DNA of 64,000 nucleotides from Nitrospiria bacterium (GTDB lineage Bacteria; Nitrospirota; Nitrospiria; JACQBZ01), in assembly GCA_035517655.1 (NCBI GenBank), contig DATIYJ010000041.1, positions 5,801 to 69,800 on the forward strand. Direction: 5' to 3'. The notes beneath the pieces were generated by a model. That model was not told the origin of the DNA, made no database searches, and saw nothing but the letters and a program-made list of their open reading frames with translations. The stretch's first letter is position 1. Every line of letters begins with the position of its first letter. This document shows positions 2,690 to 59,080 of this stretch, in pieces. The position numbers and the translations under genes are program-made.

Positions 2690-2772
2690 GGTCTCCCCAG
2701 CGAGCAAAGCGAGCGAGAGGGGGAGGCTCCGTCTGGCTTTGCCAGCGGAGGGGGCGACGTGAGCCCCCTACA
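2690..2772 (-). repeat. Intergenic repeat family copy 1 (short form, about 82 bp, reverse orientation)
   Basis: Reverse complement reads TAGGGGGCTCACGTCGCCCCCTCC-GCTGGCAAAGCCAGACGGAGCC-TCCCCCTCTCGCTCGCTTTGCTCGCTGG. The termini match the five other copies. Central hairpin GCTGGC/GCCAGA. Confidence 0.75.
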
Positions 2773-2793
2773 AATCAGAACGGAGATATTTCG

Positions 2794-3924
2794 ATGACCA
2801 AGCGTATGGTGATCATGTTGTTGATCGTCGGCCTGTTGTTCGGCGCCATCTTCGGCTTTCAGGCCTTCAAGGCGAAGATGATCAAGCAGTTCATGGCGTC
2901 CATGAAAATGCCGCCGGCCACGGTCACGGCGATGAAGGCCGAACTCCGGCCCTGGCAGCCGCAACTGAACGCGGTGGGGAGTCTGCGCGCCGTGCACGGG
3001 GTCGACGTCACCAGCGAGATCGGGGGGCTGGTGCGGGAGGTGCGCTTCGCGTCGGGGGACGAGGCGAAGGCCGGCCAGGTGCTGGTGCAGCTCAACGCCG
3101 ACGCGGACGTCGGGCTGCTGCGGTCCCTCGAGGCGGCGGCCGAACTGGCCCGGACCACCTACGAGCGCGACAAGGCGCAGTTCGCCATCCAGGCGGTCAG
3201 CCAGGCGGCGCTCGACGCCGACGCCGCCGATCTCAAAAGCAAGGAGGCCCAGGTGGCGCAGCAGGCGGCGGTGGTCGACAAGAAGACGATCCGGGCCTTG
3301 TTCGACGGGCGGCTCGGCATCAACGCCGTCAACCTCGGGCAGTACGTGAACCCGGGCGACAAGATCGTCACGCTCCAGTCGCTGGATCCGATCTACGTCG
3401 ATTTCTCCCTGCCGCAGCAACAGCTGTCGCGCGTGAAGCTCGGACAGACCGTCACGGCGACCACCGATGCATATCCCGGCCGCGCGTTCGAAGGGAAGAT
3501 CACGGCCGTCAACCCCAAGGTGGATCCGGACACCCGGAACGTGCAGATCGAGGCGACGGTCGCCAACCCCAAGCACGACCTCCTGCCGGGGATGTACGCG
3601 TCGGTGACGGTCGAGTCCGGCGCGGTCCAGTCGTACCTGACCCTGCCGCAGACCGCCGTGACCTTCAACCCCTACGGGGAAAGCGTCTACGTGATCGAGG
3701 AGGGCGCAAAAGGCGCGGACGGCAAGCCGGTCCTGACCGCCAAACAGACCTTCGTGACCGTCGGCGAGACCCGCGGCGACCAGGTGGCGATCGTGAAGGG
3801 GATCAAACCGGGCGACCTGGTGGCCACGAGCGGCCAGCTCAAGTTGAAAAACGGGAGCGCGGTGGTCGTCAACAACACGGTTCAGCCCAGCAACGACGTC
3901 TCGCCCGCGCCGACGGACCAATAA
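2794..3924 (+). CDS. RND efflux periplasmic adaptor (membrane fusion protein, AcrA/MexA family)
   Basis: N-terminal TM anchor, biotinyl/lipoyl-like and beta-barrel segments typical of MFPs (for example the segment around VTATTDAYPGRAFEGKITAV; this reading is from memory, not a computed match). 376 aa, between the OMF and RND genes. Confidence 0.85.
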   Translation: MTKRMVIMLLIVGLLFGAIFGFQAFKAKMIKQFMASMKMPPATVTAMKAELRPWQPQLNAVGSLRAVHGVDVTSEIGGLVREVRFASGDEAKAGQVLVQLNADADVGLLRSLEAAAELARTTYERDKAQFAIQAVSQAALDADAADLKSKEAQVAQQAAVVDKKTIRALFDGRLGINAVNLGQYVNPGDKIVTLQSLDPIYVDFSLPQQQLSRVKLGQTVTATTDAYPGRAFEGKITAVNPKVDPDTRNVQIEATVANPKHDLLPGMYASVTVESGAVQSYLTLPQTAVTFNPYGESVYVIEEGAKGADGKPVLTAKQTFVTVGETRGDQVAIVKGIKPGDLVATSGQLKLKNGSAVVVNNTVQPSNDVSPAPTDQ

Positions 3925-3939
3925 CCCGGGAGCTTCCTC

Positions 3940-6900
3940 ATGCGTTTCACGGATCTTTTTATTCAACGGCCGGTGCTGGCCACCGTCATCAGCCTGATGA
4001 TTTTTGTGTTGGGCATGCGTTCGGTGGGCTTGCTGCCCGTGCGCGAGTTCCCGGAAACCCAGAACGCGGTGGTGACGGTGGCCACGACGTACACGGGGGC
4101 CGACCCGGCGCTGGTGGCCGGTTTTATCACCACCCCGCTGGAAAACTCGATCGCGCAGGCGAACGGCATCGACTACCTCACCTCCTCCAGCGCCCAGAGC
4201 GTGAGCACGATCCAGGCCAACCTGCGGCTGAACTACGATCCGAACAAGGCGCTGACCGAGATCAACACGCAGGTCAACGCGGTGCTCAACCAGCTGCCGA
4301 AGGAAACGCAGCAGCCGGTCCTGACGATCGCCATCGGCGAAACGATCGATTCGATGTACATCGGTTTCTACAGCACCGTGCTGTCGACCAACCAGATCAC
4401 CGATTATCTCATCCGGGTGGTGCAGCCCAAGCTGCAGACGGTCGACGGCGTGCAGACCGCCGAAATCCTGGGCAAGCACCAGTTCGCGCTGCGCGCGTGG
4501 CTCGACCCGGACAAGATGGCGGCCTACCGCCTGACCGCGGCCGACGTGAGCAACGCGCTCGCCGCCAACGATTTCATTTCCGCGGTCGGACGGACCAAGG
4601 GGCAGATGGTCACGGTGGACCTGACCGCCGCGACCGGCCTGCACTCGGTCGATGAATTCCGCAACCTCGCGATCAAGGCGCAAAACGGCGCGATCGTGCG
4701 CCTGGGCGACGTCGCGAACGTCACGCTCGGGTCGGACGACTACGACACGGCCGTGGGCTTCGACGGCCAGACGGCCGTTTACATCGGCATCAAGGTCGCG
4801 CCGAGCGCCAATCTCCTCACGGTCATCGACAACGTCCGCAAGGCCTTCCCGCCGATCCGGGCGCAACTGCCCGAGGGGCTCGGCGGCAAGATCGTGTACG
4901 ACGCGACGAAATACGTGAACAGCTCGATTCACGAGGTGGTCAGCACGCTGGTCAAATCCCTGCTGATCGTCACGCTGGTCATTTTCCTTTTCCTCGGCTC
5001 CCTGCGGTCGGTGGTCATTCCGACGATCGCGATGCCCTTGTCGTTGATCGGCGCGTTCTTCGTCATGCTGGTTCTCGGGTACTCGATCAACCTGCTGACG
5101 CTGCTCTCGCTGGTCCTGGCGATCGGCCTGGTCGTGGACGACGCGATCATCGTGGTCGAAAACGTCCACCGGCATATGGAAGGGGGAATGTTGCCCATGC
5201 AGGCGGCGCTGGCCGGCGCGTACGAGCTGGCGGGGCCGATCATCGCCATCACCGTGGTCCTGATCGCGGTCTACGTGCCGATCGGGTTCATGGGCGGCCT
5301 GACCGGGGCGCTGTTCACCGAGTTCGCCTTCACGCTGGTCGGCGCCGTGACGGTTTCGGCGATCATCGCGCTGACGCTCTCGCCGATGATGTGCTCGCGG
5401 TTTCTCAAGCCGCACGGCGGCGGGCAGGGCCGCTTCGTCCGATTCATCGACGGCCAGTTCGAGCGCCTGCGCGCCGGCTACGCGCGCCGGCTGCACGGGG
5501 CGCTCGACACCCTCCCGGTCGTCGGGGTGTTCGCGGCGATCATCCTCGGCAGCATTTACTTTCTCTACGCCAACGCCAAGAGCGAGCTGGCCCCGCAGGA
5601 GGACATGGGCGTCATCATCTCGCTGGTGACGGCCGCGCCAAACGCCACGCTCGATCAGACGCAGCTCTACACCCGGGAGGTTTACAAGACCTTCGCCGCG
5701 TATCCCGAGACCGACCACGTGTTCCAGCTCGACGGCATCAGCGGGGTCAACTCCGGGATCGCGGGGATGGTGATGAAGCCGTGGGACGAGCGGAAGCGCA
5801 CCACGATGGCGTTGCAGCCGGTCGTCCAGCAGCAGCTCGGGGACATCGCGGGCGTGCGGGCGGTGGCGTTCCAGCGGCCTCCGCTGCCCGGCGGCGGGCG
5901 GGGCCTGCCGGTCCAGTTCGTGATCGGGACGACCGATTCGTACGAACGCCTGAACGACGTGTCGGTGGCGATGATGGACAAGGCGCGGGCCAGCGGCATG
6001 TTCATGTTCGTCGACAGCGACCTGAAGTTCGACAAGCCTCAGACCACGGTGCAGATCGACCGCGACAAGGCGGCCCAGCTGGGGCTGACGATGCAGACCG
6101 TCGGCGACGCGCTCGGGTCGATGCTGGGCGGCGGGTACGTCAACTACTTCAGCCTGGCCGGGCGCTCGTACAAGGTGATCCCCCAGGTGATGCAGCGCGA
6201 ACGGCTGAACGCCGAGCAGCTCCGGGACTACTACATCACGACCGCGACCGGCGGGTCCGTTCCGGTCTCGACGATCGCGAGCCTCAAGACCGTTGTCGTG
6301 CCCGAGACGCTGAATCACTTCCAGCAGCTCAATTCGGCCATGATCTCGGCGGTGCCGTCCATCGGCATCACGCTGGGGCAGGCGCTGGACACGCTGGACG
6401 CCGAGGCCAGGGAGGTCCTTCCCCAGGGCTACAGCATCGACTACGGGGGGCCGTCGCGGCAGTACAAGCAGGAGTCGAGCGCGCTGATCGTCACCTTCTT
6501 CTTCGCCCTGATCATCATCTTCCTCGCGCTCGCCGCGCTCTTCGAAAGCTTCCGCGATCCCCTGATCGTGCTGGTGAGCGTGCCGATGTCGATCTGCGGG
6601 GCGATGATCTTCATCAGCCTCGGCGTCGGCGGCTCGACCCTCAACATCTACACCGAGGTCGGTCTGGTGACGCTGATCGCGCTGATCAGCAAGCACGGGA
6701 TCCTGATCGTGCAGTTCGCCAACGACCTGCAGCGGGAGGGGCGGAGCAAGCGCGAGGCCGTGGAGACGGCCGCCGGCATCCGGCTGCGGCCGATCCTGAT
6801 GACGACCGCGGCGATGGTGCTCGGGGTGTTGCCGCTGATCACGGCCTCCGGCGCCGGCGCGGTGGGCCGCTTCAACATGGGCCTCGTGATCGCGGCCGGC

Positions 6901-7023
6901 ATCTCGATCGGCACCCTGTTCACGCTGTTCGTGGTGCCGGCGATGTATATGTTCCTCGCGACGGACCGGACCCGGGCGGGGGCGGCCGTCCCGAAACCGC
7001 CGGCCCTGGCCGCCGGAGCTTGA
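3940..7023 (+). CDS. RND multidrug efflux transporter permease (HAE1, AcrB/MexB family)
   Basis: 1027 aa, 12-TM architecture with large periplasmic loops. Starts MRFTDLFIQRPVLATVISLMI..., typical of AcrB-family N-termini. Confidence 0.9.
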   Translation: MRFTDLFIQRPVLATVISLMIFVLGMRSVGLLPVREFPETQNAVVTVATTYTGADPALVAGFITTPLENSIAQANGIDYLTSSSAQSVSTIQANLRLNYDPNKALTEINTQVNAVLNQLPKETQQPVLTIAIGETIDSMYIGFYSTVLSTNQITDYLIRVVQPKLQTVDGVQTAEILGKHQFALRAWLDPDKMAAYRLTAADVSNALAANDFISAVGRTKGQMVTVDLTAATGLHSVDEFRNLAIKAQNGAIVRLGDVANVTLGSDDYDTAVGFDGQTAVYIGIKVAPSANLLTVIDNVRKAFPPIRAQLPEGLGGKIVYDATKYVNSSIHEVVSTLVKSLLIVTLVIFLFLGSLRSVVIPTIAMPLSLIGAFFVMLVLGYSINLLTLLSLVLAIGLVVDDAIIVVENVHRHMEGGMLPMQAALAGAYELAGPIIAITVVLIAVYVPIGFMGGLTGALFTEFAFTLVGAVTVSAIIALTLSPMMCSRFLKPHGGGQGRFVRFIDGQFERLRAGYARRLHGALDTLPVVGVFAAIILGSIYFLYANAKSELAPQEDMGVIISLVTAAPNATLDQTQLYTREVYKTFAAYPETDHVFQLDGISGVNSGIAGMVMKPWDERKRTTMALQPVVQQQLGDIAGVRAVAFQRPPLPGGGRGLPVQFVIGTTDSYERLNDVSVAMMDKARASGMFMFVDSDLKFDKPQTTVQIDRDKAAQLGLTMQTVGDALGSMLGGGYVNYFSLAGRSYKVIPQVMQRERLNAEQLRDYYITTATGGSVPVSTIASLKTVVVPETLNHFQQLNSAMISAVPSIGITLGQALDTLDAEAREVLPQGYSIDYGGPSRQYKQESSALIVTFFFALIIIFLALAALFESFRDPLIVLVSVPMSICGAMIFISLGVGGSTLNIYTEVGLVTLIALISKHGILIVQFANDLQREGRSKREAVETAAGIRLRPILMTTAAMVLGVLPLITASGAGAVGRFNMGLVIAAGISIGTLFTLFVVPAMYMFLATDRTRAGAAVPKPPALAAGA

Positions 7024-7026
7024 CGG

Positions 7027-7052
7027 GGCGGGCCGGGCCCGCCACATTTTTC
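7027..7052 (+). terminator. Rho-independent terminator after the RND operon
   Basis: GC hairpin GGCGGGCC-GG-GCCCGCC followed by ACATTTTTC, immediately after the RND stop at 7023. Confidence 0.55.
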
Positions 7053-7152
7053 TTGACAATGCAGGGCCGGTTGGGTTTTGCTATCCCTTGAGAGATCATC
7101 CGGGCGTCCCGTACAAGGCGCTTTTAATAATAATCAAAAGAGGAGGCTTCCC

Positions 7153-7578: not shown

Positions 7579-7602
7579 GATCGTAATCGTCGACGATTCG
7601 AA

Positions 7603-7640
7603 GGGCCCGGGGGAGATTTCCCGCCGGGCCCTTTTTTCGT
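7603..7640 (+). terminator. Rho-independent terminator
   Basis: GGGCCCGGGGG-agatttc-CCGCCGGGCCC followed by TTTTTTCGTTTC. Confidence 0.7.
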
Positions 7641-7755: not shown

Positions 7756-8883
7756 ATGGATTTTCATCAGGACGTCTTAAAGGAACTCAATAAAAATATC
7801 ACGCTCTCGGAGAAGCTGGAATCGATCCATAAGGTATTGAAGAACCGCTTTCCCTTCATCGACCGGATCTCCGTGGCCGTCTACGATGCCAAGACGGACC
7901 TGTTGAAGACCTTCAGCCACAGCAGCGGCCGGCAGGCTCCGCTGGTCCGTTATGAGGCGAAGATGGGGGAGTCGCGCTCCCTCACGGAGATCCTTGATAC
8001 CGGCGCGCCGCGCGTGATCAACGACCTGGCCGTGTTCGATCACCCGGAACGGGAGCACACGAAGCGGATCGCGGCGCGGGGCTACGCCTCCAGCTACACG
8101 ATGCCGATGTACGTCAACGGGGCCTTCTTCGGTTTCGTCTTTTTCAATTCCCGCAGGAAGAACGCCCTCGAGCCCGAAGTGCTCCATTACCTGGACGTGT
8201 TCGGCCATCTCGTCTCCCTCACGATCGTCAACGACCTCATGACGATCCGGACGATGCTGGCGACCGTCAAGGCCGCGCGGGACATCAGCGCCCACCGGGA
8301 CATGGAGACGGGGGCCCACCTCGACCGGATGTCCCATTACGCCCGGCTGATCGCGAGGGAACTGGCCGAAAAATACGGCTTCGACGACGAATTCATCGAG
8401 CATATCTTTTTATTCGCGCCGCTTCACGACATCGGCAAGATCGGCGTGCCGGACGCCATTCTCCGGAAGCCGGCCAAGCTGACCGAGGAAGAGTTCGAGC
8501 TGATGAAGTCGCACACGCTGAAGGGCCGCCAGATGATCGACGCGATGCTGAAGGACTTCGGGCTCGATTCCTTCCAGCACATCGACGTCATGCGAAACAT
8601 CGCCGAGTACCACCACGAGATGATCGACGGCATGGGCTACCCCGATGGCATGAAAGGGGACGAGATTCCGATCGAGTCGCGGATCATCGCCGTGGCGGAC
8701 ATCTTCGACGCCCTCACCAGCCGACGGCCCTACAAGACGGCCTGGACGAATGAAGAGGCCTTCGCGATGCTGCGACAGCTTTCGGGGATGCAGCTGGACC
8801 CGGACTGCGTCGCGGCGCTCGTCAGGAACGCCGACCGCATCGATGAGATTCAGAAACGCTTCCGCGAAAATCCGTTCGCATGA
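7756..8883 (+). CDS. HD-GYP domain c-di-GMP phosphodiesterase with an N-terminal GAF-like sensor region
   Basis: HD motif LHDIGKIGVPD. The GYP signature HHEMIDGMGYPDG is present. Confidence 0.85.
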   Translation: MDFHQDVLKELNKNITLSEKLESIHKVLKNRFPFIDRISVAVYDAKTDLLKTFSHSSGRQAPLVRYEAKMGESRSLTEILDTGAPRVINDLAVFDHPEREHTKRIAARGYASSYTMPMYVNGAFFGFVFFNSRRKNALEPEVLHYLDVFGHLVSLTIVNDLMTIRTMLATVKAARDISAHRDMETGAHLDRMSHYARLIARELAEKYGFDDEFIEHIFLFAPLHDIGKIGVPDAILRKPAKLTEEEFELMKSHTLKGRQMIDAMLKDFGLDSFQHIDVMRNIAEYHHEMIDGMGYPDGMKGDEIPIESRIIAVADIFDALTSRRPYKTAWTNEEAFAMLRQLSGMQLDPDCVAALVRNADRIDEIQKRFRENPFA

Positions 8884-8886
8884 TTG

Positions 8887-8962
8887 GTAGGGGCTTGCGT
8901 CGCCCCCTCCGCCGGCCCAGCCGGACGGAGCCTTCCCCTCTCGCTCGCGTTGCTCGCTGGGT
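8887..8962 (+). repeat. Intergenic repeat family copy 2 (short form)
   Basis: GTAGGGGCTTGCGTCGCCCCCTCC-GCCGGCCCAGCCGGACGGAGCC-TTCCCCTCTCGCTCGCGTTGCTCGCTGG. Central hairpin GCCGGC/GCCGGA. Confidence 0.75.
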
Positions 8963-9000
8963 AGACCTCTAATTAGAAGTGACTTTCCTAATGTTACATT

Positions 9001-13496: not shown

Positions 13497-13543
13497 GGCC
13501 TATATATATAATAGATACAGATCGAATATATTGCTCCTTTTAG
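13497..13543 (-). promoter_or_regulatory. Conserved 45 bp AT-rich upstream element, copy A (candidate promoter)
   Basis: GGCCTATATATATAATAGATACAGATCGAATATATTGCTCCTTTT. Near-identical to 41439-41485. On the minus strand it reads TTCGAT-N16/17-TATATA, 66 to 112 bp upstream of the start at 13431. Confidence 0.5.
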
Positions 13544-13556
13544 GTGGGCCCTCGGG

Positions 13557-14144: not shown

Positions 14145-14392
14145 GATGTTCTCCCTTCAACGATAAATCGTTTCAATCTGAGGTTTGTGATGGATCGGGC
14201 CGGCGGAGCGGGCCGGTGAATCATGGATAGAATGGAAGGGGAGCGCGCGAGCATAAGGGGAAGCCTCCGGAAGCCGGGTCGAGGGTCGGGGCCTTGTTGT
14301 AGACCGCGGCTCAGGCCGGCCTTGAATCATTCCAGAATATACCGGATACGGAAAAAAAGAGCAAGAACGACGGTGAAAAAGACCGAGCCGGT

Positions 14393-16967: not shown

Positions 16968-19574
16968 TCATCGGAACGACCGCCGCTTCGCGCGCGCGGT
17001 CGGTGTCGCGTTCCACGGATCGTCGGGCCACGGATGCCGGGGGTAGCGGCCTTTCAATTCCTTCTTCACCCCGGCGTAGGTCCGTTCCCAAAACCCCCGC
17101 AGATCCTGGGTGACTTGAATGGGCCGGCGGGCGGGCGAGAGGAGATGCAGCGTCACGGGAATTTTCCCGAAGCCCACGCGCGGCGTGTCGGCCGATCCGA
17201 ACATCTCCTGCAGCTTCACGGCCAGCGCCGGCGGTTCTCCCGGCCGGTATCGAAGCTGCAGCCGCGACCCGGAGGGAACCGTCAGGTGCGTCGGCGCGCC
17301 CTCTTCCAGCCGCTGTCGAAGCTTTAAGTCCAAGCGGGCCTTCAGAATCGCGGCAAGGTCCAGCCGGTCGAGATGCTCGCGGCGGACGACCTGCCTGCCG
17401 GCAGGCACGGCGCCGCCCAGATAAGGCCCGATCCATTCCTCGATCGTTTCTTGCAGCGCCGCGTCGGAGATATCCGGCCAGCCTTCCTGCGGGAACCATT
17501 GCCTAAGCGAGAGGACCCGAGCCTGATAATCGCGCGCCTCGCGAGACCAGGGGAGGGCCGCCACTCCCATGCTTCGGACGCCTTCCAGCGCGGCGGCGCG
17601 CAGCTTCTCCGGGTCCGGATCGGGGATCGCGCCGCTTCCGATAAGCAGTTGGCCCAGCCGCTCTTGGCGTTGCGCGATGATTTTTTGCCGCTGCGGATCC
17701 CAACGAACGACCTCTTCCGTTATGAACGCGTCGGCCAGCCCCCGCCGCAACGCCTCGATCTCGACGGCGGCGGCCAGATGGATCGTCCCCTCCGTCTCCT
17801 GCCTGCCGGCAGGCACGGCGCCCGCGTCGAGACTGGCCGCGACGAGATACGGCGGCCGCATCCGGTGCTCCTCCTTCGGCAGCCGCGCGCCGCGTCCGGA
17901 GGCGAGCCGGTAGCGGACGTCGCCGGGGGAGCGTTGCTGCGCGATCCGGTCCGGATAGGCGAAGGCCAGAAGCAAACCGGTTTGATCGAGGTCCCCCGCC
18001 GTCCCGGTCGTTTGATTCCGAACCAGACGAAGAAGCTGTCGCGCGGCCTGGTCGACGCGCTGGCAGGCGGCCGGATCGGCCCCGAACGACTTCGCGCCGC
18101 CCCGTCCGCGCGCGCGGAAAGCCCTCAGCGCCTCGATGCGAATCAGAAAATCGGCAGAACGCCGGCCGTCGCCCGCGAGCACGTCTCTCTCCGAGAGAAG
18201 GGCCGCGACATCGCAAGCCAGCGGAGCCAGCCCCGTCGCGCCGGCCCGCTGGACCATATGGGCGAGACGGGGATGGAGCGGCCACGCGGCCATCGCCCGC
18301 CCGGCCGCCGTGATCGCGCCGGCCGGATCGAGCGCGCCGAGCTCGGTCAGAAGACCGCGCGCCCGGGCCAGCGCGCCCGCGGGCGGCGGGTCGAGCCACG
18401 ACAGGGTCTCGGCGTCGTGCGCGCCCCATTGCGCCAGTTCCAGCGCCAGCGGCGTCAGATCGGCGGCGCGGATTTCCGGGACCGGCCGGTCCGTCAACCC
18501 GCGCTGGGTCGCCTCGCTCCAGAGACGGTAGCAGACGCCGGGGCCGAGCCGTCCGGCCCGTCCGGCGCGCTGCTCGGCCGAGGCGCGGGAGACGCGCATG
18601 GTCGTAAGCCGCGTCAGCCCGGTCCGCGGATCGAACTCGGGAACCCGGACGAAGCCGGAGTCGATCACGACCCCGATGCCTTCGATGGTCAGGCTGGTCT
18701 CGGCGATCGGCGTGGCCAGGACGATTTTGCGCCGGGCGCTTGGGTTCGGTCGGATCGCCCGGACCTGCGCCTCCCAGGGGAGATCGCCGTAGAGCGGGTG
18801 GACCCCGACCGGCGCGCCCCCGCCCGCCGGACCGGCAGGGGCCAGCGCCGCCTCCAGCAGTTCCTGCGTTCGACGGATCTCCCGGGCTCCCGGTAAAAAA
18901 ACCAGCAGGTCGCCGTTGTCCTGTTTCAGCGCGTGCAGCACGGACTGTTTTACGATCTCCGGAATCCGGCCTTCAAGATCGCGGGGATCGTGCGCCGCGT
19001 AACGAACCTCGACCGGAAAGCTGCGCCCGCGGCTGCTCAGGACCGGCGCATCTCCGAGGAGCGACGAGACGGCCCGGCCGTCCAGCGTCGCGGACATCAC
19101 GAGAAGCTTCAGGTCCTCGCGCAGCAGGCGGCGGCTGTCGATGCAGAGCGCCAGCGCCAGGTCGCCGTGCAGATGCCGCTCGTGAAACTCGTCGAAGATC
19201 ACGAGTCCGACACCCTCCAATCCCGGATCGGACTGGAGCCGGCGCGTGAGGATCCCCTCCGTCAGCACCTCGACGCGCGTTTTCGCCGATACCTTCGAAT
19301 CAAAGCGGATGCGGTAGCCGACCGTCTCGCCGACGGGTTCGCCCAGAAGCTCGGCCATCCGCGCGGCCGCGGCGCGCGCCGCCAGGCGTCGGGGCTCCAG
19401 CATCAGGATCGACCGGTCCGCAAGCCACGGCTCCTCCAGCAAGGATATCGGAACGACCGTCGTCTTTCCGGCGCCGGGCGGCGCCTGCAGGACGGCGGAC
19501 GGGCGGGCCTTCAGCGTTTCCCGCAGCGAGGGGAGAATCTCATGAATCGGCAACGGAACGGTTGAGCGGCTCAT
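16968..19574 (-). CDS. hrpB: ATP-dependent DEAH-box helicase HrpB
   Basis: Motifs LQAPPGAGKTT, DEFHER and SATL. 868 aa with the HrpB-type C-terminal domain. Confidence 0.9.
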   Translation of the reverse strand: MSRSTVPLPIHEILPSLRETLKARPSAVLQAPPGAGKTTVVPISLLEEPWLADRSILMLEPRRLAARAAAARMAELLGEPVGETVGYRIRFDSKVSAKTRVEVLTEGILTRRLQSDPGLEGVGLVIFDEFHERHLHGDLALALCIDSRRLLREDLKLLVMSATLDGRAVSSLLGDAPVLSSRGRSFPVEVRYAAHDPRDLEGRIPEIVKQSVLHALKQDNGDLLVFLPGAREIRRTQELLEAALAPAGPAGGGAPVGVHPLYGDLPWEAQVRAIRPNPSARRKIVLATPIAETSLTIEGIGVVIDSGFVRVPEFDPRTGLTRLTTMRVSRASAEQRAGRAGRLGPGVCYRLWSEATQRGLTDRPVPEIRAADLTPLALELAQWGAHDAETLSWLDPPPAGALARARGLLTELGALDPAGAITAAGRAMAAWPLHPRLAHMVQRAGATGLAPLACDVAALLSERDVLAGDGRRSADFLIRIEALRAFRARGRGGAKSFGADPAACQRVDQAARQLLRLVRNQTTGTAGDLDQTGLLLAFAYPDRIAQQRSPGDVRYRLASGRGARLPKEEHRMRPPYLVAASLDAGAVPAGRQETEGTIHLAAAVEIEALRRGLADAFITEEVVRWDPQRQKIIAQRQERLGQLLIGSGAIPDPDPEKLRAAALEGVRSMGVAALPWSREARDYQARVLSLRQWFPQEGWPDISDAALQETIEEWIGPYLGGAVPAGRQVVRREHLDRLDLAAILKARLDLKLRQRLEEGAPTHLTVPSGSRLQLRYRPGEPPALAVKLQEMFGSADTPRVGFGKIPVTLHLLSPARRPIQVTQDLRGFWERTYAGVKKELKGRYPRHPWPDDPWNATPTARAKRRSFR

Positions 19575-34673: not shown

Positions 34674-34689
34674 GATTCCTTCCTCAAAT

Positions 34690-34834
34690 TTAGAGGGGCT
34701 CGCGTCGCCCCCAAACTATAGGGACTGGATACGGGATAAAGGATGCCGGTGATGAAAATATTTTTTACTCGCATCTTGCATCCCGCATCTTGTATCTGAC
34801 CCGCCTCCCCCTCCCGTTCGCCTTGCTCGTTGAG
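34690..34834 (+). repeat. Intergenic repeat family copy 3 (long form, about 145 bp) between glgX and glgB
   Basis: TAGAGGGGCTCGCGTCGCCCCC ... AT-rich insert ... CCTCCCCCTCCCGTTCGCCTTGCTCGTTGAG. The right end abuts the glgB stop. Confidence 0.7.
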
Positions 34835-34837
34835 TAT

Positions 34838-36790
34838 CTACCCTTTAAAAAAAAGCGCGCCCAGGGGAGGCAGGGTCAGCGCGAGCGAGTGGGAACGCCC
34901 ATGGGCGGGGACGGGCGCGGCCTCGGCGCCTCCGGCATTTCCGAGCCCGCTTCCGCCGTAGAAGGCGGAGTCGCTGTTGAGCAGTTCGCGCCAGTAGCCG
35001 CCGCCCGGAACTCCGACCCGGTATTGGTATTTCGGGACCGGGGTGAAATTGAAGACCGTCAGGATGATCTCGCCCGCGTTCGTTCCCTTCCTTAGAAAAC
35101 TGACCACGCTCTGCTCCCAGTCGTTGCAATCGATCCATTCGAAGCCTTCGGCGTCGAAATCCCGCTCGTGCAGGGCCGGTTCCGCACGGTACAGGCGGTT
35201 GAGGTCCGCGATCCATCGCCGGATCCCGTTGTGGTTCGGGAATTGAAGCACGTGCCATTCGAGACTTTCCTCGTGCTTCCATTCGCGGACCTGGCCGAAT
35301 TCGCCGCCCATGAAAAGCAATTTTTTTCCGGGATGGCCGTACAGGTAGCCGTACAGCAGCCGGAGGTTGGCGAAGCGCTGCCATTCGTCCCCGGGCATCT
35401 TGCCGATGAGCGATCCCTTGCCGTGCACCACCTCGTCGTGGGACAGGGGCAGGATGAAATTTTCCGAGAAGGCGTACCACAGGCTGAAGGTGAGCTGGTT
35501 GTGGTGGTATTTCCGGTACAGGGGGTCCTCCGAGAAATAGGCCAGGGTGTCGTGCATCCAGCCCATGTTCCATTTCATCCCGAAGCCCAGGCCCCCCACA
35601 TGGGTCGGCCGGGAGACCATGGGCCAGGCGGTCGATTCCTCCGCAAAGATCTGAACGTCCGGAAATTTCCCGTAGGCGGATTCGTTCAGGCGCTTGAGGA
35701 AATGGATGGCATCGAGGTTCTCGCGGCCGCCGTAAACGTTGGGGATCCACTCGCCTTCTTTTCGGGCGTAGTCCAGGTAGAGCATCGAGGCCACCGCGTC
35801 CACGCGGAGGCCGTCGATGTGGTATTTGTCCAGCCAGAACAGCGCGCTGCTGATCAGGAAGGACCGGACTTCGTTGCGGCCGTAGTTGAAGATGAAGCTG
35901 TTCCATTCGGGATGAAATCCCTTACGGGGATCGGCGTGCTCGTAGAGGTGGGTCCCGTCGAAGTACGCCAGTCCGTGCTCGTCGGAGGGAAAGTGGGAGG
36001 GGACCCAGTCCAGGATCACGCCGATGCCCTCCTGATGGAGATGATCGACCAGGTACATGAAATCCTGGGGTGTGCCGTAGCGCCGCGTCGGGGCGAAATA
36101 GCCCGTCGTCTGGTATCCCCACGAACCGTAGAAGGGATGCTCCGTGATCGGCATCAACTCGACGTGCGTGAAGCCCGTTTCCTTGACGTGGGCCGCGAGA
36201 GGGCGGGCCAATTCCCGGTAGGTCAGCGGCCGGTTGCCTTCCTCGGGAACGCGCCGCCACGAACCGAGGTGCACTTCGTAGATCGCGAGGGGAGCGGCGA
36301 GGGCGTTCGCCCGTTTCCGCTTCGCCATCCAGTCCCGATCGCCCCAGTCATAGTTTAGGTCCCAGACCACGGATGACGTTTTGGGCGGGCATTCCCATCC
36401 GAAGGCGAAGGGGTCGCCTTTGTTCACGTTGAACGATTGATTTCCGGAGCTGACGTGATACTTGTAAAGGGCCCCCGGCCCGATTCCGGGAAGGAAGCCC
36501 TCCCAGATCCCGGATGCGTCCCCCCGGACCGAGAGCGGGTGGGCCTGGGGCTTCCAGCCGTTGAAATCCCCCACGACCGAAACGCGCTCGGCGTTCGGCG
36601 CCCATACCGCAAAGACCGTTCCGGCGGCGCCCTGCGCCGTGATCGGATGCGCGCCGAGTTTCTCGTACAGCAACGTGTGATTTCCCTCTTTGAGAAGGAA
36701 AATATCATAGTCGGTCAAGAGACCGACCGGGCCGGGATCCGGCGGGCGGGACGCTCGTGTGAAATCTCCGGGCATCGACTTGTTTTCCAT
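34838..36790 (-). CDS. glgB: 1,4-alpha-glucan branching enzyme GlgB
   Basis: CBM48 followed by a GH13 catalytic domain ([17 protein letters not shown]). 650 aa. Confidence 0.9.
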
Positions 36791-41438: not shown

Positions 41439-41485
41439 GGCCTATATATATATAATAGATGCAGATCGAATATATTGCTCCTTTT
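41439..41485 (-). promoter_or_regulatory. Conserved 45 bp AT-rich upstream element, copy B (candidate promoter)
   Basis: GGCCTATATATATATAATAGATGCAGATCGAATATATTGCTCCTTTT. 39 to 85 bp upstream of the start at 41400. Confidence 0.5.
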
Positions 41486-41771
41486 CGATTGGGCACCGTA
41501 GTAGCAGCGGCGCAACATGCTACGCCCCTACAAGCGAAAACCCACGATTATGGATGATTGCATAGTCCGGAAGGACCGATGGACGGTGTGTGCGGGAAGC
41601 GAGAGGGGAGTGCGTGAGCATAACAGGAGCCTCCGAAGCCGTGTCGAGGTCCGGGCCTCGTTGGAAATCCATTTCCGAGACCGTGCTCAGACCGGCGCTA
41701 AATCAACCGAGAATATACCGGAACCGGGACAAAACGTCAACATCGCGCATCCCATTCGCGAACTCCGCGTT

Positions 41772-41800: not shown

Positions 41801-41806
41801 CGCCGC

Positions 41807-46256: not shown

Positions 46257-46282
46257 GGATCCTTCTTATTGGGGCTTATATC

Positions 46283-46357
46283 ATAGGGGCTCACGTCGCC
46301 CCCTCCATCGGAAAACCCCGATGGAGCCTCCCCCTCCCGCTCGCCGCGCTCGCCGGG
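46283..46357 (+). repeat. Intergenic repeat family copy 4 (short form) between the ABC-2 permease and gldG
   Basis: ATAGGGGCTCACGTCGCCCCCTCC-ATCGGAAAACCCCGATGGAGCC-TCCCCCTCCCGCTCGCCGCGCTCGCCGG. Central hairpin ATCGG/CGATG, a different sequence with the same pairing as copies 1 and 2. Confidence 0.75.
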
Positions 46358-46386
46358 CGGATTCTCCACGAGCTTATTCGGATGTC

Positions 46387-47157
46387 TCACTTCCATCGCT
46401 GCGACTCCAGAACGCGGTGGGTGATGAACAGTCCCACGATGATCAGGGTGAGCTGGTAGACCAGGTCCTCGGTATCGATCATCCCCTTGATGAAATTCTC
46501 GGTATGCTCGCCGATGGAAAGATAGGTGAGCAGCGAGCCCAGCGACGAGTCCGTCACGGTCTGGGAGATCCAGCCGATGAGCCACAAAATCAGGACCGCG
46601 CCGAAGCCGATGAAGCTGGCGATGATCTGGTTCTCGGTGAGCGACGACGCAAGCAGGCCGACCGCGATGAAGACGCCCCCCAGGAGCCAGATGCCGAGAT
46701 AGCCGGTCAGGATCGGCATCCACTGGACGGACCCGTAGTACCACATCAGGAACGGCATGTACGCCGTCAGGGCCAGCATCAGCGTGAAGACCGCCATCGC
46801 GGCGAGGTATTTGCCCAGCACGATGGACGTCAGCGGCACCGGCGAGGTCATCAGCAGTTCCATCGTCTTGGTCTTTTTTTCCTCGGCCAGAAGCCGCATC
46901 GTGATCAGCGGCAGGGTGAGCATCAGGATCACGGCCATGTTATGGAAGGTGGGGCGGAAGATCAGATCGTTCAGATTGATCTGCGGCAGGGCGCCCTGCA
47001 CGCGCATGATCTGCATGCTCTGGCTGCTGGCGAATAGGACGATGCTGTAAAACAGGTAGCCCGAAATCAGGATGAAGATCGCCGTCACCACGTAGGCGAT
47101 CGGGGAGTTGAACAGGACGCGAAGTTCTTTTCCCGCGATGGCGAGCGTGCTTTTCAT
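46387..47157 (-). CDS. ABC-2 type transporter permease (GldF-like)
   Basis: Start MKSTLAIAGKELR overlaps the ATPase stop (ATGA). Six TM helices. Confidence 0.8.
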   Translation of the reverse strand: MKSTLAIAGKELRVLFNSPIAYVVTAIFILISGYLFYSIVLFASSQSMQIMRVQGALPQINLNDLIFRPTFHNMAVILMLTLPLITMRLLAEEKKTKTMELLMTSPVPLTSIVLGKYLAAMAVFTLMLALTAYMPFLMWYYGSVQWMPILTGYLGIWLLGGVFIAVGLLASSLTENQIIASFIGFGAVLILWLIGWISQTVTDSSLGSLLTYLSIGEHTENFIKGMIDTEDLVYQLTLIIVGLFITHRVLESQRWK

Positions 47158-49487: not shown

Positions 49488-50938
<1,451 letters not shown>

Positions 50939-50961
50939 AATCAATTGTGGGGTTTGGGGAT

Positions 50962-52328: not shown

Positions 52329-55474
<3,146 letters not shown>

Positions 55475-55526
55475 AATCCTGCCGGTCGGTTGACCTTTTT
55501 GTCGGGACGGGGTATATTCCTGTGCA

Positions 55527-55793
55527 ATGATGGCGGAAGACTTTCCCTATGCGTTAACGGCTCACGCGGCCAAAGTAATTTCAGAACGTCGAATTCAGTT
55601 GACATGGGTGGCGCAAGTCTTAACCCGGCCGTTGAATACCGAGCCTGATAAGCAAGATCCAATGTTACGGCATGCCTTGGGTCGTATTGCTGAATACGGA
55701 GGGCGGGTATTGCGAGTGGTGTACAACGAGAAAACACAACCGTGGCAGATTGTTACCGCATATTTTGACCGCAAGGAAAGGAGCAGGAAATGA
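55527..55793 (+). CDS. DUF4258-family protein (putative toxin of a DUF4258/DUF2283 pair)
   Basis: 88 aa, low-GC island. ATGA overlap with the next gene. Confidence 0.55.
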   Translation: MMAEDFPYALTAHAAKVISERRIQLTWVAQVLTRPLNTEPDKQDPMLRHALGRIAEYGGRVLRVVYNEKTQPWQIVTAYFDRKERSRK

Positions 55794-55990
55794 AGGTGCA
55801 TTTTGATGAAAAAGCAGACGCGATCTATCTCCGTCTTGACGAATCCAAAATCGTCGAGTCGGAGGAAGTGCAACCCGGCATCATCCTCGATTTCAATGAG
55901 CAGAACGAGGTGGTCGGCATTGAAATTCTTCGGGTGAAAGGCCGTGTGCCGCTGGCCAACCTGAAACAGATGCAGTTTGAGGTCGCATAA
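55790..55990 (+). CDS. DUF2283-family protein (putative antitoxin partner)
   Basis: 66 aa, MKVHFDEKADAIYLRL... is the typical DUF2283 start. Confidence 0.55.
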   Translation: MKVHFDEKADAIYLRLDESKIVESEEVQPGIILDFNEQNEVVGIEILRVKGRVPLANLKQMQFEVA

Positions 55991-56251
55991 ATGAAAGAAT
56001 ATCGTCCTGCCAAGAAGCGCATCACCGTTTCAGTCGGCGAGTCTGTGCGAATTCTTCGCGAGCTCCAGGAGCTAAGCCAGAGCCAGTTGGCCCGCCTAAC
56101 CCGCATTCCCCAATCCACCATTTCGGCAATTGAGAACGATCGCGTCCGTCTGGGTGTTGAGCGCGCAAAGGTTCTGGCCCGAGCGCTCAAGTGTCATCCT
56201 GGAGTCTTGGTGTTTCCCGGTTGGGAACTTCCCGGCATCGCTGCGGCATAG
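55991..56251 (+). CDS. XRE-family helix-turn-helix transcriptional regulator
   Basis: HTH LSQSQLARLTRIPQSTISAIENDR. Starts on the nucleotide after the DUF2283 stop. Confidence 0.7.
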   Translation: MKEYRPAKKRITVSVGESVRILRELQELSQSQLARLTRIPQSTISAIENDRVRLGVERAKVLARALKCHPGVLVFPGWELPGIAAA

Positions 56252-56512
56252 CCTGTTATACGCTCCCATCGTAGGGGCGTGATTCATCACGCCCTGATTT
56301 GGATGCAATTCATTGCGTCCCTACCGCCACAGCGTTAATTTCCCATCCCGGCTGTAAATGTTGACCTGTGTCAAAGGTTGTAAAAAGGCATGCTTTATTG
56401 ACTTTCGCGGACCTTACGAGATGCCGTGAATCTAACCCCTGTTGGAGCCGCTGGCGACTCGGCGGGGGCGCGGCTTTTTGACTTAATGGCCGCCCCGGGA
56501 GAAAGTTGACTC

Positions 56513-56818
56513 TCACCCTTCTTCAATCTGCTGGGCGCCGTGATGCACGGTCAGGATTTCGACTCGTGATTTTTTGGAGACAACACGGTAGATGATGCGG
56601 TAATGGCCGATGATCACTTCTCGAAGGCCGGAAGTCGGGAACTCTGGAACCATCCGTCCGGAGTTTGGAAATCGGGCGAGCCGGGCGACTTTCTTTTTGA
56701 TCTCTTTCCCAAAGCGTTGAGCCGCCTCCGGATCATCCGCCTTGATGTACTGAACAACCTCCAACAGGCTTCGCAGGGCCGGAGCGGTCCATTCGACGGC
56801 GTAAAGTTTCTTAGGCAT
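56513..56818 (-). CDS. Type II toxin, ParE/RelE family
   Basis: 101 aa, ...RFPNSGRMVPEF...EVIIGHYRIIYRV...ILTVHHG is the ParE/RelE fold signature. Confidence 0.8.
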   Translation of the reverse strand: MPKKLYAVEWTAPALRSLLEVVQYIKADDPEAAQRFGKEIKKKVARLARFPNSGRMVPEFPTSGLREVIIGHYRIIYRVVSKKSRVEILTVHHGAQQIEEG

Positions 56819-57089
56819 TCAGGAGTTCGTCCAATTGCCGCATGGCTTCCTTGTGGCGGACCCGATCTCCTTTTTCGGCAGCCTGAAGTCCCCGAATGAT
56901 CGCTTCCAACAATTCAAGCCGCTCCAGCCTATTCTCGTACTCTTTGACATCTTCGATCACGGCGGCCGAACGGCCCCGCTGGGTCAGAATGAGCGGCCGC
57001 CGGGTTTTCTTGATCTTCCGAAGCAGATCGGCTGCTTGGGTGCGGAAATCGGTTACCGGTGTTACATCCTCGGCGAACTTAGCTCTCAT
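56811..57089 (-). CDS. Type II antitoxin, Phd/YefM family
   Basis: 92 aa. N-terminal VTDFRTQAADLLRKIKKTRRPLILTQRGRSAAVI is the Phd/YefM signature. 8 nt overlap with the toxin start. Confidence 0.8.
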   Translation of the reverse strand: MRAKFAEDVTPVTDFRTQAADLLRKIKKTRRPLILTQRGRSAAVIEDVKEYENRLERLELLEAIIRGLQAAEKGDRVRHKEAMRQLDELLNA

Positions 57090-57226
57090 ATCGAAGATCT
57101 CCTTTTAGAAGTACTTTTTTCGATCGGTCTAATGTACTGTAAAAATACCTTATTTAGGGTCGAATGTCAATTCAAGTATGAGATGATTTCATCCGTAATC
57201 ATGGTCGCAAACAACGACAATCTTCA

Positions 57227-57255
57227 TTGACCGGCTTCACGATCGTTGCTACAAT
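57227..57255 (+). promoter_or_regulatory. Candidate sigma70 promoter of nth
   Basis: TTGACC-N17-TACAAT about 28 nt upstream of ATG 57283. Confidence 0.5.
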
Positions 57256-57282
57256 GTCCTCAGACGGCTGACGGGGGGCTTC

Positions 57283-57918
57283 TTGAATAAGCTCGAACAA
57301 CTTATAAAAATTCTCGACCGCGAATTTCCGGACCCGAAGGTCGAGCTTCATTACGAGACCCCCTTGGAACTCCTGATCGCCACGATCCTTTCGGCCCAAT
57401 GCACCGATGACCGCGTCAACAAGGTCACGCCGCATCTGTTTAACAAGTACAAGACCGCGGCGGACTACGCCAGGGCGGATCCGTCCGTTCTTGAGCAGGA
57501 AATCCGGTCCACCGGCTTCTACAAGAACAAGGCCAAAAACATCATCGGGTGCGGCCGGGCCCTGGTCGAGAAGCACGCCGGCCGGGTTCCGCAAACGATG
57601 GATGAGCTGGTCGAGCTGCCCGGCGTCTGGCGCAAAACGGCCAATGTCATCCTGGGAAACTGTTTCGGCCGCCCGGCCATCGTGGTGGATACGCATGTCC
57701 GGCGGGTCAGTCAACGCCTGGGATTGACCCGGTCGGACGACCCGGATGAAATCGAGACGGAACTCGGCCGTTTCATTCCCGAAAAGAAATGGACCCGCGT
57801 CTCGCACCAGCTTCTGCTCCACGGCCGCCACGTCTGCAAGGCGAAAAACCCCCGGTGTCCGGACTGCGGACTCAAGCCGATCTGCCGTTATTTCAAGCAG
57901 GAGCGCAAGGCCGGTTGA
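57283..57918 (+). CDS. nth: Endonuclease III
   Basis: HhH-GPD motif LPGVWRKTANVIL. Lys and Asp catalytic context. 4Fe-4S cluster CX6CX2CX5C at the C-terminus. Confidence 0.9.
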   Translation: MNKLEQLIKILDREFPDPKVELHYETPLELLIATILSAQCTDDRVNKVTPHLFNKYKTAADYARADPSVLEQEIRSTGFYKNKAKNIIGCGRALVEKHAGRVPQTMDELVELPGVWRKTANVILGNCFGRPAIVVDTHVRRVSQRLGLTRSDDPDEIETELGRFIPEKKWTRVSHQLLLHGRHVCKAKNPRCPDCGLKPICRYFKQERKAG

Positions 57919-57998
57919 TCCCGGCCGGGGCGCCGGTTTGTTTGACAAACCGGGCCGTTCTCTATATAATGACTGGTTTATTAGCCAGGCGAGGTTTG

Positions 57999-58877
57999 AT
58001 GATTGAAAGCATGACCGGCTACGGCCGAAGCGAGGGAAGTTACCGCGACCTGACGATCGTTGCGGAGCTTCGGTCGACCAATCATAAATACTGCGATATC
58101 ACGGTTCGGCTGCCCAAGCTTTTGCTCCCTCTCGAGACCGTTCTTCGGAAACAGGTGCAGCAACGATTCACCCGCGGCCGGCTGGAAGTGGCCGTATCGA
58201 TCAACGGCGCCAACGAGCAGCCGAAGCAACTCGACGTGGACCTCGAGCTCGCCCGCCAGTATTCCCGGATTCTCAAAGACCTGAAGGCCAAGCTTGATTT
58301 GCCGGGCCCGGTGGATCTGGCCCTGTTGATGAATTTCAAGGACATCATCACGACCGCGGAATGGACCGGGACGACGGACGCCCTGGCGGCGCAGGTCCGG
58401 GGACTCCTGAACGAAGCCATGGACCGCTTGGAAGCCATGCGCCGGAAAGAGGGGCGTGCGCTGGTCCGCGATCTCGGTCAGCGTCTCCGGTTGATCGAGA
58501 AGGCGCTGCGTCACATCCAGTCGCGCGTCCCGGCGATGGTTCGGGGCTATCAGGCCCGCCTCAACGAGCGCATTGAACGATTAACCCAAGGGGTTAAATT
58601 GGACCCGGCTCGGTTGGCCCAAGAGGTGGCTGTTTTTGCCGAACGATCGGATGTGAGCGAGGAACTGACCCGATTAAAAAGTCACCTGAACCAGTTCAGG
58701 ACCATGATGCAGGGACGGGAGTCCATCGGGCGAAGCCTGGATTTTCTCATCCAGGAAATGAACCGGGAGGTCAACACGATCGGGTCCAAGGCCAGCGACG
58801 CCTCCATCGCGATGAAGGTGGTCGGCATCAAGAGCGAGTTGGAAAAGCTCAGGGAACAGGTTCAAAACATCGAATGA
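57999..58877 (+). CDS. yicC: YicC/YloC-family protein
   Basis: MIESMTGYGRSEG N-terminus is the YicC_N hallmark. C-terminal DUF1732-like region EMNREVNTIGSKAS. Confidence 0.8.
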   Translation: MIESMTGYGRSEGSYRDLTIVAELRSTNHKYCDITVRLPKLLLPLETVLRKQVQQRFTRGRLEVAVSINGANEQPKQLDVDLELARQYSRILKDLKAKLDLPGPVDLALLMNFKDIITTAEWTGTTDALAAQVRGLLNEAMDRLEAMRRKEGRALVRDLGQRLRLIEKALRHIQSRVPAMVRGYQARLNERIERLTQGVKLDPARLAQEVAVFAERSDVSEELTRLKSHLNQFRTMMQGRESIGRSLDFLIQEMNREVNTIGSKASDASIAMKVVGIKSELEKLREQVQNIE

Positions 58878-58898
58878 CGGTCGGTTCGCGGTCAATTT

Positions 58899-59080
58899 GT
58901 AGGGGCTCGCGTCGCCGCTATTATCTATGGGGGCCCGTGCGGGCATTGCTCTTCCGATGCCCCCATACCCCGCGCTCGGACAGGCGAAGCCTGATCCTCG
59001 CTTTTCACCGGCCAAGCCGGATGGAGCGACTCGACCGAGCTCGTCGAGGTCCTCCCCCTCCCGCTCGCCGTGCTCGCTGG
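58899..59080 (+). repeat. Intergenic repeat family copy 6 (long form, about 182 bp) between yicC and gmk
   Basis: GTAGGGGCTCGCGTCGCC ... insert ... GCCGGATGGAGC ... CCTCCCCCTCCCGCTCGCCGTGCTCGCTGG, ending 10 nt before the gmk ATG. Confidence 0.7.

Follow-up and report, generated by a model that had tools for sequence, protein, structure and literature searches.

Most of what is known of repeats of the repetitive extragenic palindromic (REP), bacterial interspersed mosaic element (BIME), BOX and MITE (miniature transposable element with inverted repeats) types comes from a small number of intensively studied Proteobacteria and Firmicutes. Here we describe a repeat family from a Nitrospiria bacterium, six copies of which (c1 to c6) lie at gene junctions in a stretch of 64,000 nucleotides (the window; GenBank assembly GCA_035517655.1, contig DATIYJ010000041.1, positions 5,801 to 69,800). 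They belong to a previously undescribed family, a new relative of the known REP/MITE-type small intergenic repeats; small non-autonomous intergenic repeats are a well-known kind of element, while the modular three-hairpin, cross-phylum form is unusual. From left to right, a copy has an AT-rich leader of 9–10 nt, the hairpins H1 and H2, a linker rich in C (CCTCCCCCTC), a third hairpin, H3, and a tail that varies; it measures ~95 nt, or 150–250 nt once tails and nested inserts are counted. We put at roughly 70% the probability that this is, at its core, a selfish, non-autonomous and gene-less mobile repeat whose structure serves its own propagation, a reading based on its multiple copies, insertion polymorphism and amplification in tandem, on the decay or interruption of single copies, on their mixed orientation beside genes of unrelated function, and on the absence of a linked gene.

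The REP and BIME sequences of Enterobacteria and Pseudomonas include hairpin-forming REP doublets (REPINs) mobilised by REP-associated tyrosine transposases (RAYTs), and REPs also serve as landing pads for insertion sequences (ISs) of the ISPpu9/IS621 type. Like these, the present family consists of short, GC-rich, non-coding hairpin repeats that occupy operon spacers densely and in places in clusters; it further resembles them in the GTAG head seen in the window lineage, in the compensatory upkeep of its hairpins and as an insertion target of an IS110-family element. It differs in that its unit joins three unlike hairpins in a set order with leader and linker, rather than being a single palindrome or inverted doublet, that GTAG is not family-wide, that the core is common to two phyla and that no RAYT was found in the collected loci. 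BOX (Streptococcus pneumoniae, boxA-boxB(n)-boxC), RUP and SPRITE repeats are composed of modular hairpin boxes and lie between genes near gene ends, and in description the family resembles them in its several hairpin modules, variable content and position; BOX elements are AT-rich repeats of Firmicutes, in other host phyla and without a GGGGC...GCCCC hairpin, and no sequence relation is expected. The MITEs Correia/NEMIS of Neisseria and ERIC/IRU of Enterobacteria are likewise 80–250 nt long, non-autonomous, polymorphic among close relatives and inserted beside genes, where they are able to supply or remove expression signals, but they have clear terminal inverted repeats and Correia a TA duplication, neither of which is present here. 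With its asymmetric ends and subterminal hairpins, its lack of inverted repeats or a regular duplication, and a gain and loss that seem to leave no seam, the family recalls the IS200/IS605-derived palindrome-associated transposable elements, from which it departs in having no conserved target tetranucleotide by its left end, no parent IS with tnpA/tnpB in the loci seen and no clear strand bias. Finally, mycobacterial interspersed repetitive units (MIRUs) are tandem 50–100 bp units in operon spacers that touch neighbouring stop and start codons, a likeness shared by this family. MIRUs all face the same way with respect to transcription and include small open reading frames (ORFs) that couple their neighbours, whereas the orientation of the present family is mixed and most copies are single.

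An initial annotation of this DNA had reported a dense, REP/BIME-like family of six intergenic repeats, and this proved to be real: all six copies are present where it had placed them and the window contains no further member. The left-end consensus TAGGGGCTCGCGTCGCCCCC (up to 3 mismatches) has six matches in the window compared to 0.02 expected and the right-end consensus CCTCCCCCTCYCGCTCGC six compared to 0.41, both sets falling on these copies. A covariance model, R1 (83 positions, 21 base pairs, trained on 39 copies drawn from many genomes), recovered the same six copies and no others from the whole window with filters off. Intact matches were c1 (2692–2775, minus strand, 84.3 bits), c2 (8882–8965, 78.5 bits) and c4 (46278–46361, 78.2 bits), while c3, c5 and c6 gave split hits (41 bits for c3); the window thus holds three intact copies of ~95 nt and three split by inserts. 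The 8.6 kb of the same contig past the window end contain no additional copy. The borders drawn initially were too narrow, as the leader on the left and the tail on the right also belong to the element, and the spacer between the two GCTCGC words of H3, given as 4 or 5 nt, is in fact 3 nt long. The statement that copies sit near gene ends stands, all six lying 4–30 nt from a start or stop codon. Flanking genes were confirmed with Pfam (OEP/HlyD around c1, GAF-HD before c2, glgB/glgX around c3, ABC-2 permease/ABC_transp_aux around c4, metK/ahcY around c5, yicC/gmk around c6), and five copies rather than the four first counted lie between co-directional genes, the OEP-HlyD pair being the addition. 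The copies and their parts are as follows.

c1, 2684–2778, minus strand: intact copy between an outer-membrane efflux gene (stop 2682) and a HlyD-type fusion gene (start 2794), antisense to both.
c1 in minus-strand order: leader CTGATTTGTA, H1, H2 (CTCCGCTGGC-AAA-GCCAGACGGAG), linker, H3, tail GGGGAGACCCTCTAC.
c2, 8881–8971, plus strand: intact copy beginning 4 nt past the stop of the GAF-HD gene, with a convergent phosphoesterase gene ahead.
c2 leader, 8881–8889, plus strand: family consensus TYCTATTAnA.
c2 H1, 8890–8906, plus strand: GGGGC-TTGCGTC-GCCCC, a 5-bp stem with a 7-nt loop.
c2 H2, 8907–8930, plus strand: CTCCGCCGGC-CCA-GCCGGACGGAG, 10 bp with a bulged A, the covarying central stem-loop.
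c2 linker, 8931–8940, plus strand: C-rich CCTTCCCCTC, where the family consensus is nearly invariant.
c2 H3 region and tail, 8941–8971, plus strand: CGCTCGC-GTT-GCTCGCTGG, then the tail GTAGA-CC-TCTA.
c3, 34685–34843, plus strand: between glgB and glgX (start 34673), antisense, with the glgB stop (34838–34840) within the tail.
c3 insert, 34713–34802: unique, AT-rich, 90 nt, in place of H2.
c4, 46276–46389, plus strand: intact core (46276–46369) plus a decayed tail hairpin H4, antisense, upstream of the ABC_transp_aux (gldG-like) gene.
c5, 50756–50938, plus strand: between metK and ahcY, antisense.
c5 insert, 50789–50908: unique, AT-rich, ~120 nt, interrupting the H2 region.
c6, 58893–59090, plus strand: composite copy between yicC and gmk, sense orientation.
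c6 in order: leader, H1 (3' arm damaged), element B (58917–59006), H2 remnant (59006–59026), an added hairpin H2b (59027–59050), linker, H3, tail AAAGAGGCTT, which bears the gmk ribosome-binding site.

The presence and absence of copies at orthologous sites among congeners indicate that the element is mobile. The window species itself has been assembled repeatedly from soil or peat metagenomes (>99.8% identity), and a metagenome scan with LigA yielded five congeneric contigs (L125–L128 and L185) that are ~82% identical to the window and 85–90% identical to one another, which makes the window the outgroup. Orthologous empty sites were also sought among the loci of the genome scan described below, which are too divergent for such comparison. 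In each of the five congeners the stop codon of metK overlaps the start codon of ahcY (TAATG) and the c5 site is empty; the window has ~211 extra nt at this junction (segment about 50745–50961), which hold c5 together with its insert and give ahcY a new Shine-Dalgarno sequence and metK a new stop. At the junction of the ABC-2 permease and gldG-like genes, two congeners (L125, L128) have an empty 35-nt spacer where the window has c4, and in L126 the junction is occupied by a composite of 192 nt with 88.7% identity to c6, which occupies another site in the window; the similarity of these two shows that the repeat and its nested element B have moved as a unit. The window and L126 have a common right junction at the c4 site, where the tail (H4 in c4) provides the TGA stop of the permease gene. 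Between yicC and gmk, L126 is empty, with a 15-nt spacer CGGGCGGGACGCGGT directly before the ATG, while in the window the homologous CGGTCGGTTCGCGGT is followed by 198 nt of element, from leader CAATTTGTA to AAAGAGGCTT, and then the ATG. L128 contains an orthologous copy at this site that lacks element B and has decayed to a score of 28 bits. As the window is the outgroup and the L128 site is filled orthologously, L126 has lost the element cleanly. L126 also has a copy of its own (6522–6604) at a position left empty in the window, in L125 and in L128, and its left junction is once more exactly 9 nt ahead of GGGGC. Among operon genes, insertion falls in the short stretch that separates a stop codon from the following ribosome-binding site. 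The borders of the surviving copies coincide with, or provide, a stop codon or a Shine-Dalgarno sequence.

H1 (GGGGC-TCRCGTC-GCCCC) is nearly invariant throughout the family and 98% paired, while H2 is a stem of ~10 bp, frequently with a bulged A. In the window lineage H3 reads GCTCGC-NNN-GCTCGC, which is a direct repeat on this strand with two C.T/T.C mismatches; the complementary strand, GCGAGC-NNN-GCGAGC, pairs into a stem that has G.A/A.G mismatches in tandem. In other lineages the stem of H3 is perfect (e.g. GCTCAC/GTGAGC, GCGAC/GTCGC, GCCCG/CGGGC). The left border is constant at 9–10 nt before H1, and the leader belongs to the inserted unit rather than the target, as seen from the position table, from the comparison of filled and empty junctions and from a 17-nt flank duplication in locus L066 that ends just before the leader. 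With H1 10 nt from the left border and H3 or H4 near the right, the hairpins are subterminal. GTAG directly precedes H1 in c1, c2, c5 and c6 but not in c3 or c4, and family-wide positions -1 to -4 are T, A, n, A, conserved at only 40–78%. The tail takes the form of a bare TGG, of the mini-palindrome GTAGA-CC-TCTA (c1, c2) or of the long hairpin H4 (L016, L068, L083, L086, L105, L126), and modules vary further in that H2 may be replaced, H2b added, and H4 present or absent.

The initial annotation had remarked that the central stem-loop of the three short copies differs in sequence while its pairing is preserved, and this extends to 87 distinct copies from other genomes. When these were aligned to the model, changes on both sides were found at nine of ten H2 pairs and six of six H3 pairs, double-change cells numbered 151 compared to 41.8 in column shuffles (0 of 500 shuffles reached 151), and 86.6% of cells were paired, against 31–53% with partners slid by 1–3 columns. 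Fitting the copies to the model biases the alignment toward structure, but compensatory changes are already visible by eye in a MAFFT alignment. The idea of selection on structure therefore stands in so far as the structure of H2 and H3 is conserved over their sequence; covariation is no proof that the host keeps each copy as a functional RNA. Since copies occur in both orientations, are present or absent among congeners, are disrupted in half of the window cases and have decayed in L128, selection on structure most likely acts on the propagation of the element itself, the same argument from propagation requirements that is used for REPINs. The hairpins, chiefly the invariant H1 with the linker, would then be recognition signals for an enzyme supplied in trans, and the covariation would reflect selection for the ability to propagate. 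The folded, active strand would be the G-rich (reverse) strand, which gives the more stable fold in 65 of 65 intact copies (mean difference -5.8 kcal/mol), in part a general property of G-rich RNA, and on which alone the H3 of the window lineage pairs well; for H3 by itself the G-rich strand is favoured in 41 copies against 7, and H2 favours it in magnitude.

Several copies have been interrupted. The initial annotation described unrelated AT-rich inserts in all three long copies, which is correct for c3 and c5, where H2 has been lost to unique AT-rich sequences with no match in the remaining data and no consensus promoter. The c6 insert is instead GC-rich and itself repeated: this element B is 90 nt long, has its own hairpins and a leader-like start (ATTATCTAT), and recurs in L126 (3407–3492), L104 (5389–5464 and 25–73) and L102. 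In the Nitrospirota metagenome-assembled genomes (MAGs) L102 and L104 it is inverted inside family copies, so that it nests in either orientation. Small palindromes are nested in H2 or H3 of copies in other genomes. A 22-nt hairpin (CCACCCACTCGTGGGTACCCGG) is repeatedly inserted in H2 or between H1 and H2 at Syntrophorhabdus loci (L028, L107, L007, L075, L019, L021). A palindrome TGCCTGCCGGCAGGCA occurs twice in the window (17376–17407 and 17800–17831, 392 nt apart), and a similar one, CCTGCCTGCCGGCAGGCAGGCAGG, is nested in a copy of the family from a Nitrospirota MAG, within its H3 region (L022, about 2800), which suggests yet another mini-palindromic repeat. In L043, a 1.56-kb IS110-family IS (DEDD_Tnp_IS110 and Transposase_20; 1457–3020) is inserted exactly at the H1/H2 junction of a copy (GCCCCCT, IS, CTCCACCAGC, with CT on either side) and encodes a 426-aa DEDD transposase (ORF 1699–2979, minus strand); its non-coding ends match no Rfam RNA family, including bridge RNA. 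The repeat therefore acts as a landing pad, and REPs are known as targets of IS110-family elements (PMC12288879).

The family is not confined to the window. A pattern scan of one genome per species listed at least 120 loci, of which ~64 are loci with true copies, the rest being chance matches of a GC-rich 17-mer. Among the matches listed, 90 copies were collected from 68 sources, all of them intergenic and all with H1. Carriers in the Nitrospirota include many MAGs and a closed Manganitrophaceae chromosome, and those in the Thermodesulfobacteriota a closed Syntrophorhabdaceae chromosome, the isolate Syntrophorhabdus aromaticivorans UI and MAGs labelled Syntrophus/Syntrophobacterales; unclassified 'Deltaproteobacteria' and 'Pseudomonadota' MAGs and one Saccharibacteria MAG also carry copies. 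The H3 subfamily GCTCGC-NNN-GCTCGC is common to Nitrospirota and Syntrophobacterales, and a AACGCCGC-TTT-GCGGC subfamily to Nitrospirota and a 'Deltaproteobacteria' MAG, and this sharing of H3/tail subfamilies between phyla points to horizontal spread. The window subfamily is closest to those of groundwater Nitrospirota MAGs. Syntrophorhabdaceae contain perfect head-to-tail arrays of 4.9 × 86 bp and 3.4 × 84 bp with units 91–100% identical, and the genome loci include doublets or triplets at several sites. A CRISPR array can be set aside, as whole 84–86 nt units adjoin one another without spacers and the window copies are single. The distribution is patchy: in 963 kb around ligA from 80 metagenomic relatives we found only three copies, all in the closest congeners. 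Nor is there a sign of a phage vector, predicted viral contigs having yielded a single copy.

The initial annotation knew of no family with this sequence, and Rfam 15 and the literature searched agree. Rfam gave no match at the gathering threshold for the window, at E ≤ 1 for four array loci or at E ≤ 10 for c2 alone. A full-text literature search with six exact H1 strings found no paper with the H1 sequence, and keyword searches on REP and MITE repeats in these taxa found no description of such a family. The report on Geobacter 'multicopy nucleotide sequences' names, in its main text and legends, families that differ in sequence. The H1 hairpin GGGGCTTGCGTCGCCCC was also seen alone, joined to unrelated downstream sequence, in L014 and L040 (Victivallaceae MAG), L089 and L030; H1 with other sequence in L014 and L040 represents another repeat, and L030 a short H1-linker-H3 form without H2, and H1 may be a module common to several repeat families.

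Orientation was surveyed with heuristic ORF calls for 67 units, 41 of which could be classified on both flanks: 22 are antisense and 10 sense between co-directional genes, 5 lie between divergent and 4 between convergent genes. In many antisense copies the leader adjoins the complement of the downstream Shine-Dalgarno sequence, with the start codon 10–30 nt away. The simplest reading of this position is selection, since compact operons tolerate insertion only between a stop codon and the next ribosome-binding site, and the moderate orientation bias may reflect which strand the mRNA tolerates. No protein is recurrently encoded beside copies in the 8-kb samples taken per genome, except for a generic ABC ATPase. 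We also considered the leader as an outward promoter (reverse complement TAnAATAGA), but no -35 partner is visible by eye and a consensus scan found no promoter in or around c3 and c5.

As the enzyme that would move the element, a hairpin-recognising single-strand DNA transposase (HUH/Y1, RAYT-like) is our tentative first guess, because the ends are asymmetric, inverted repeats and regular duplications are lacking, loss is seamless and this lineage has a GTAG head. Terminal inverted repeats are absent from the element, which has internal hairpins only, and an inverted leader plus H1 follows within 260 nt downstream in 0 of 67 units. No target-site duplication of fixed length was found in 66 copies, 53 of which have a longest shared flank word of 4–6 nt, as in mismatched controls (exceptions 7–17 nt), and the c6 junction is seamless. 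Several observations weigh against a selfish repeat moved in this way. Long flanking direct repeats do occur (17 nt in L066, 11 nt in L016, 9 nt in L083, at least 16 nt in L015), and five of at least 9 nt were observed where 0.5 are expected; duplications of variable length fit neither a DDE nor a HUH enzyme, and no known enzyme class explains the mixture. Neither a RAYT-like motif (six-frame translations of the collected loci), nor a full-length parent element, nor a protein family associated with copies was found in the 8-kb samples. As regards an IS200/IS605-type mechanism, no target tetranucleotide is conserved 5' of the leader (in 58 copies no base exceeds 38% at positions -11 to -14; flanks differ between the two clean junctions, CGCGGT and TACCAC), and there is no convincing replication-strand bias with local GC skew as proxy, which is confounded with gene orientation (27 versus 38 copies, p = 0.21 in a sign test and 0.05 in a Wilcoxon test). 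Lastly, some contribution of a host-level function could also lie behind the 2:1 antisense excess and behind how little H1 and linker vary across two phyla. Candidate parents and transposases did not hold up: the only left-end/right-end pair seen to enclose a gene, in L043, is the copy interrupted by the IS110-family element, and the genes between inverted copies are mog of a moaA-moaC-mog operon in L088 and an oxidoreductase and a lipoprotein gene in L022. There is a small chance that an unrecognised trans-acting system of Nitrospirota and Thermodesulfobacteriota reads H1 and linker on the G-rich single strand and inserts and excises seamlessly at stop/ribosome-binding-site junctions, sometimes with duplications of variable length, and that copies have in part been co-opted as operon punctuation that uncouples translation and protects cistrons. 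At one Saccharibacteria locus (L015, 5540–5740) the copy is flanked by a direct repeat of ~49 nt with ~80% identity (ACCGCCCAGATCAGG...CTTTGGTTCGGGCTTG); the flanks are either the product of an old target duplication of unusual length or part of a repetitive coding region into which the copy inserted.

Other explanations share part of this evidence. That the family is a bona fide REP/REPIN, with H1 and the GTAG head as the REP moved by a single-copy RAYT gene elsewhere and H2, H3 and tails as lineage-specific, BIME-like additions, is a possibility we regard as doubtful. GTAG directly before the H1 palindrome in four of six window copies, the high density, the extragenic position in operons, the tandem clusters and the IS110-family insertion all speak for it, as does hairpin covariation like that reportedly described in REPINs by Bertels and Rainey in 2011. 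However, GTAG is unconserved outside the window lineage, copies are single or direct tandems without inverted doublets, the conserved unit of ~95 nt has three different hairpins, the collected loci lack a RAYT motif, and H1 and linker are common to phyla, while REPs are normally specific to a species or genus. We think it unlikely that the repeat is a host-selected cis-acting RNA, in which the transcribed three-hairpin block would set the stability, processing or translation of neighbouring cistrons, as the initial annotation had envisaged. Its stems covary, 32 of the 41 classifiable copies lie between co-directional genes with an orientation bias of 22:10, the leader adjoins the downstream Shine-Dalgarno sequence in many copies, and the mRNA of most copies contains the G-rich strand, the better folder. 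Against this, both orientations occur, as do copies at divergent and convergent gene pairs, the flanking genes are unrelated in function, congeners do without the element at the same junctions, where overlapping genes or 15–35 nt spacers suffice, half of the six copies in the window are broken up, decay has reached an orthologous copy, and there is no Rfam match.

A classical MITE, that is, a deletion derivative of a DDE-transposase IS that moves by cut-and-paste via terminal inverted repeats with a fixed target-site duplication, would account for the size, the lack of coding capacity, the intergenic position and the insertion polymorphism, some subfamilies have a weak 5–6 nt inverted motif (TCTAT ... 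ATAGA/TAGA) near both borders, and some copies are flanked by 8–11 nt direct repeats. Yet inverted repeats of useful length are missing from the ends, flanking repeats reach 6 nt in a minority of copies only (with lengths then ranging over 8–17 nt), the c6 junction is seamless and the collected loci yielded no IS that could be a parent by its ends, the single IS in them being one that interrupts a copy instead of sharing its ends; we think this explanation quite unlikely. It is very improbable that the family is a minisatellite-like (MIRU-like) tandem repeat spread by replication slippage and recombination rather than by transposition. The perfect 86-bp and 84-bp Syntrophorhabdaceae arrays and the doublets and triplets at several loci speak for it, but every window copy stands alone and the six are scattered across 56 kb at junctions unrelated to one another, fresh single copies stand at sites that are empty in congeners, where slippage, which expands arrays, cannot seed loci, and blastn found no segmental duplications taking in flanking DNA.

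Under the selfish reading, effects on the host would be by-products. Insertion exactly at cistron junctions can turn an overlapping, translationally coupled gene pair into a separated one, and the window shows this for metK and ahcY, whose coupling, judged from the gene overlap in congeners, is presumably broken, with a predicted stable hairpin block now inside polycistronic transcripts. A role in differential mRNA stability is plausible by likeness to REP/BIME and Correia elements. The family extends small hairpin repeats to anaerobic and groundwater lineages that have received little study and are for the most part uncultured, and its almost invariant core in two phyla points to horizontal spread of a mobilisation system; it is at the same time a landing pad for IS110-family ISs and nested mini-elements. 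In practical terms it matters as a source of spurious small ORF calls and assembly breaks in MAGs and offers strain-level insertion markers, and the covariance model is usable for annotation. Public gene calling has set a 50-aa ORF without a Pfam hit over c4 in L121 (15727–15879, corresponding to the c4 region of the window), and copies probably generate such spurious small 'hypothetical proteins' in MAG annotations.

Just before c3, a terminator-like hairpin with a T-run lies at 34848–34872 (minus strand), within the last 35 nt of the glgB frame. Since the current glgB stop codon lies in the tail of the element, insertion of c3 may have changed the end of glgB. Unrelated to the family, an AT-rich 50-nt sequence (GGCCTATATATATAATAGATRCAGATCGAATATATTGCTCCTTTT) occurs in intergenic DNA at 13497–13548 and 41441–41492 of the window with 92% identity. 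Two more pairs of 61–75 nt with 72–74% identity are found at 14309–14369/41685–41745 and 10583–10657/40501–40575, one of them overlapping the start of a SnoaL-like gene; these pairs could be shared promoters or operators, or the result of local paralogous duplication.

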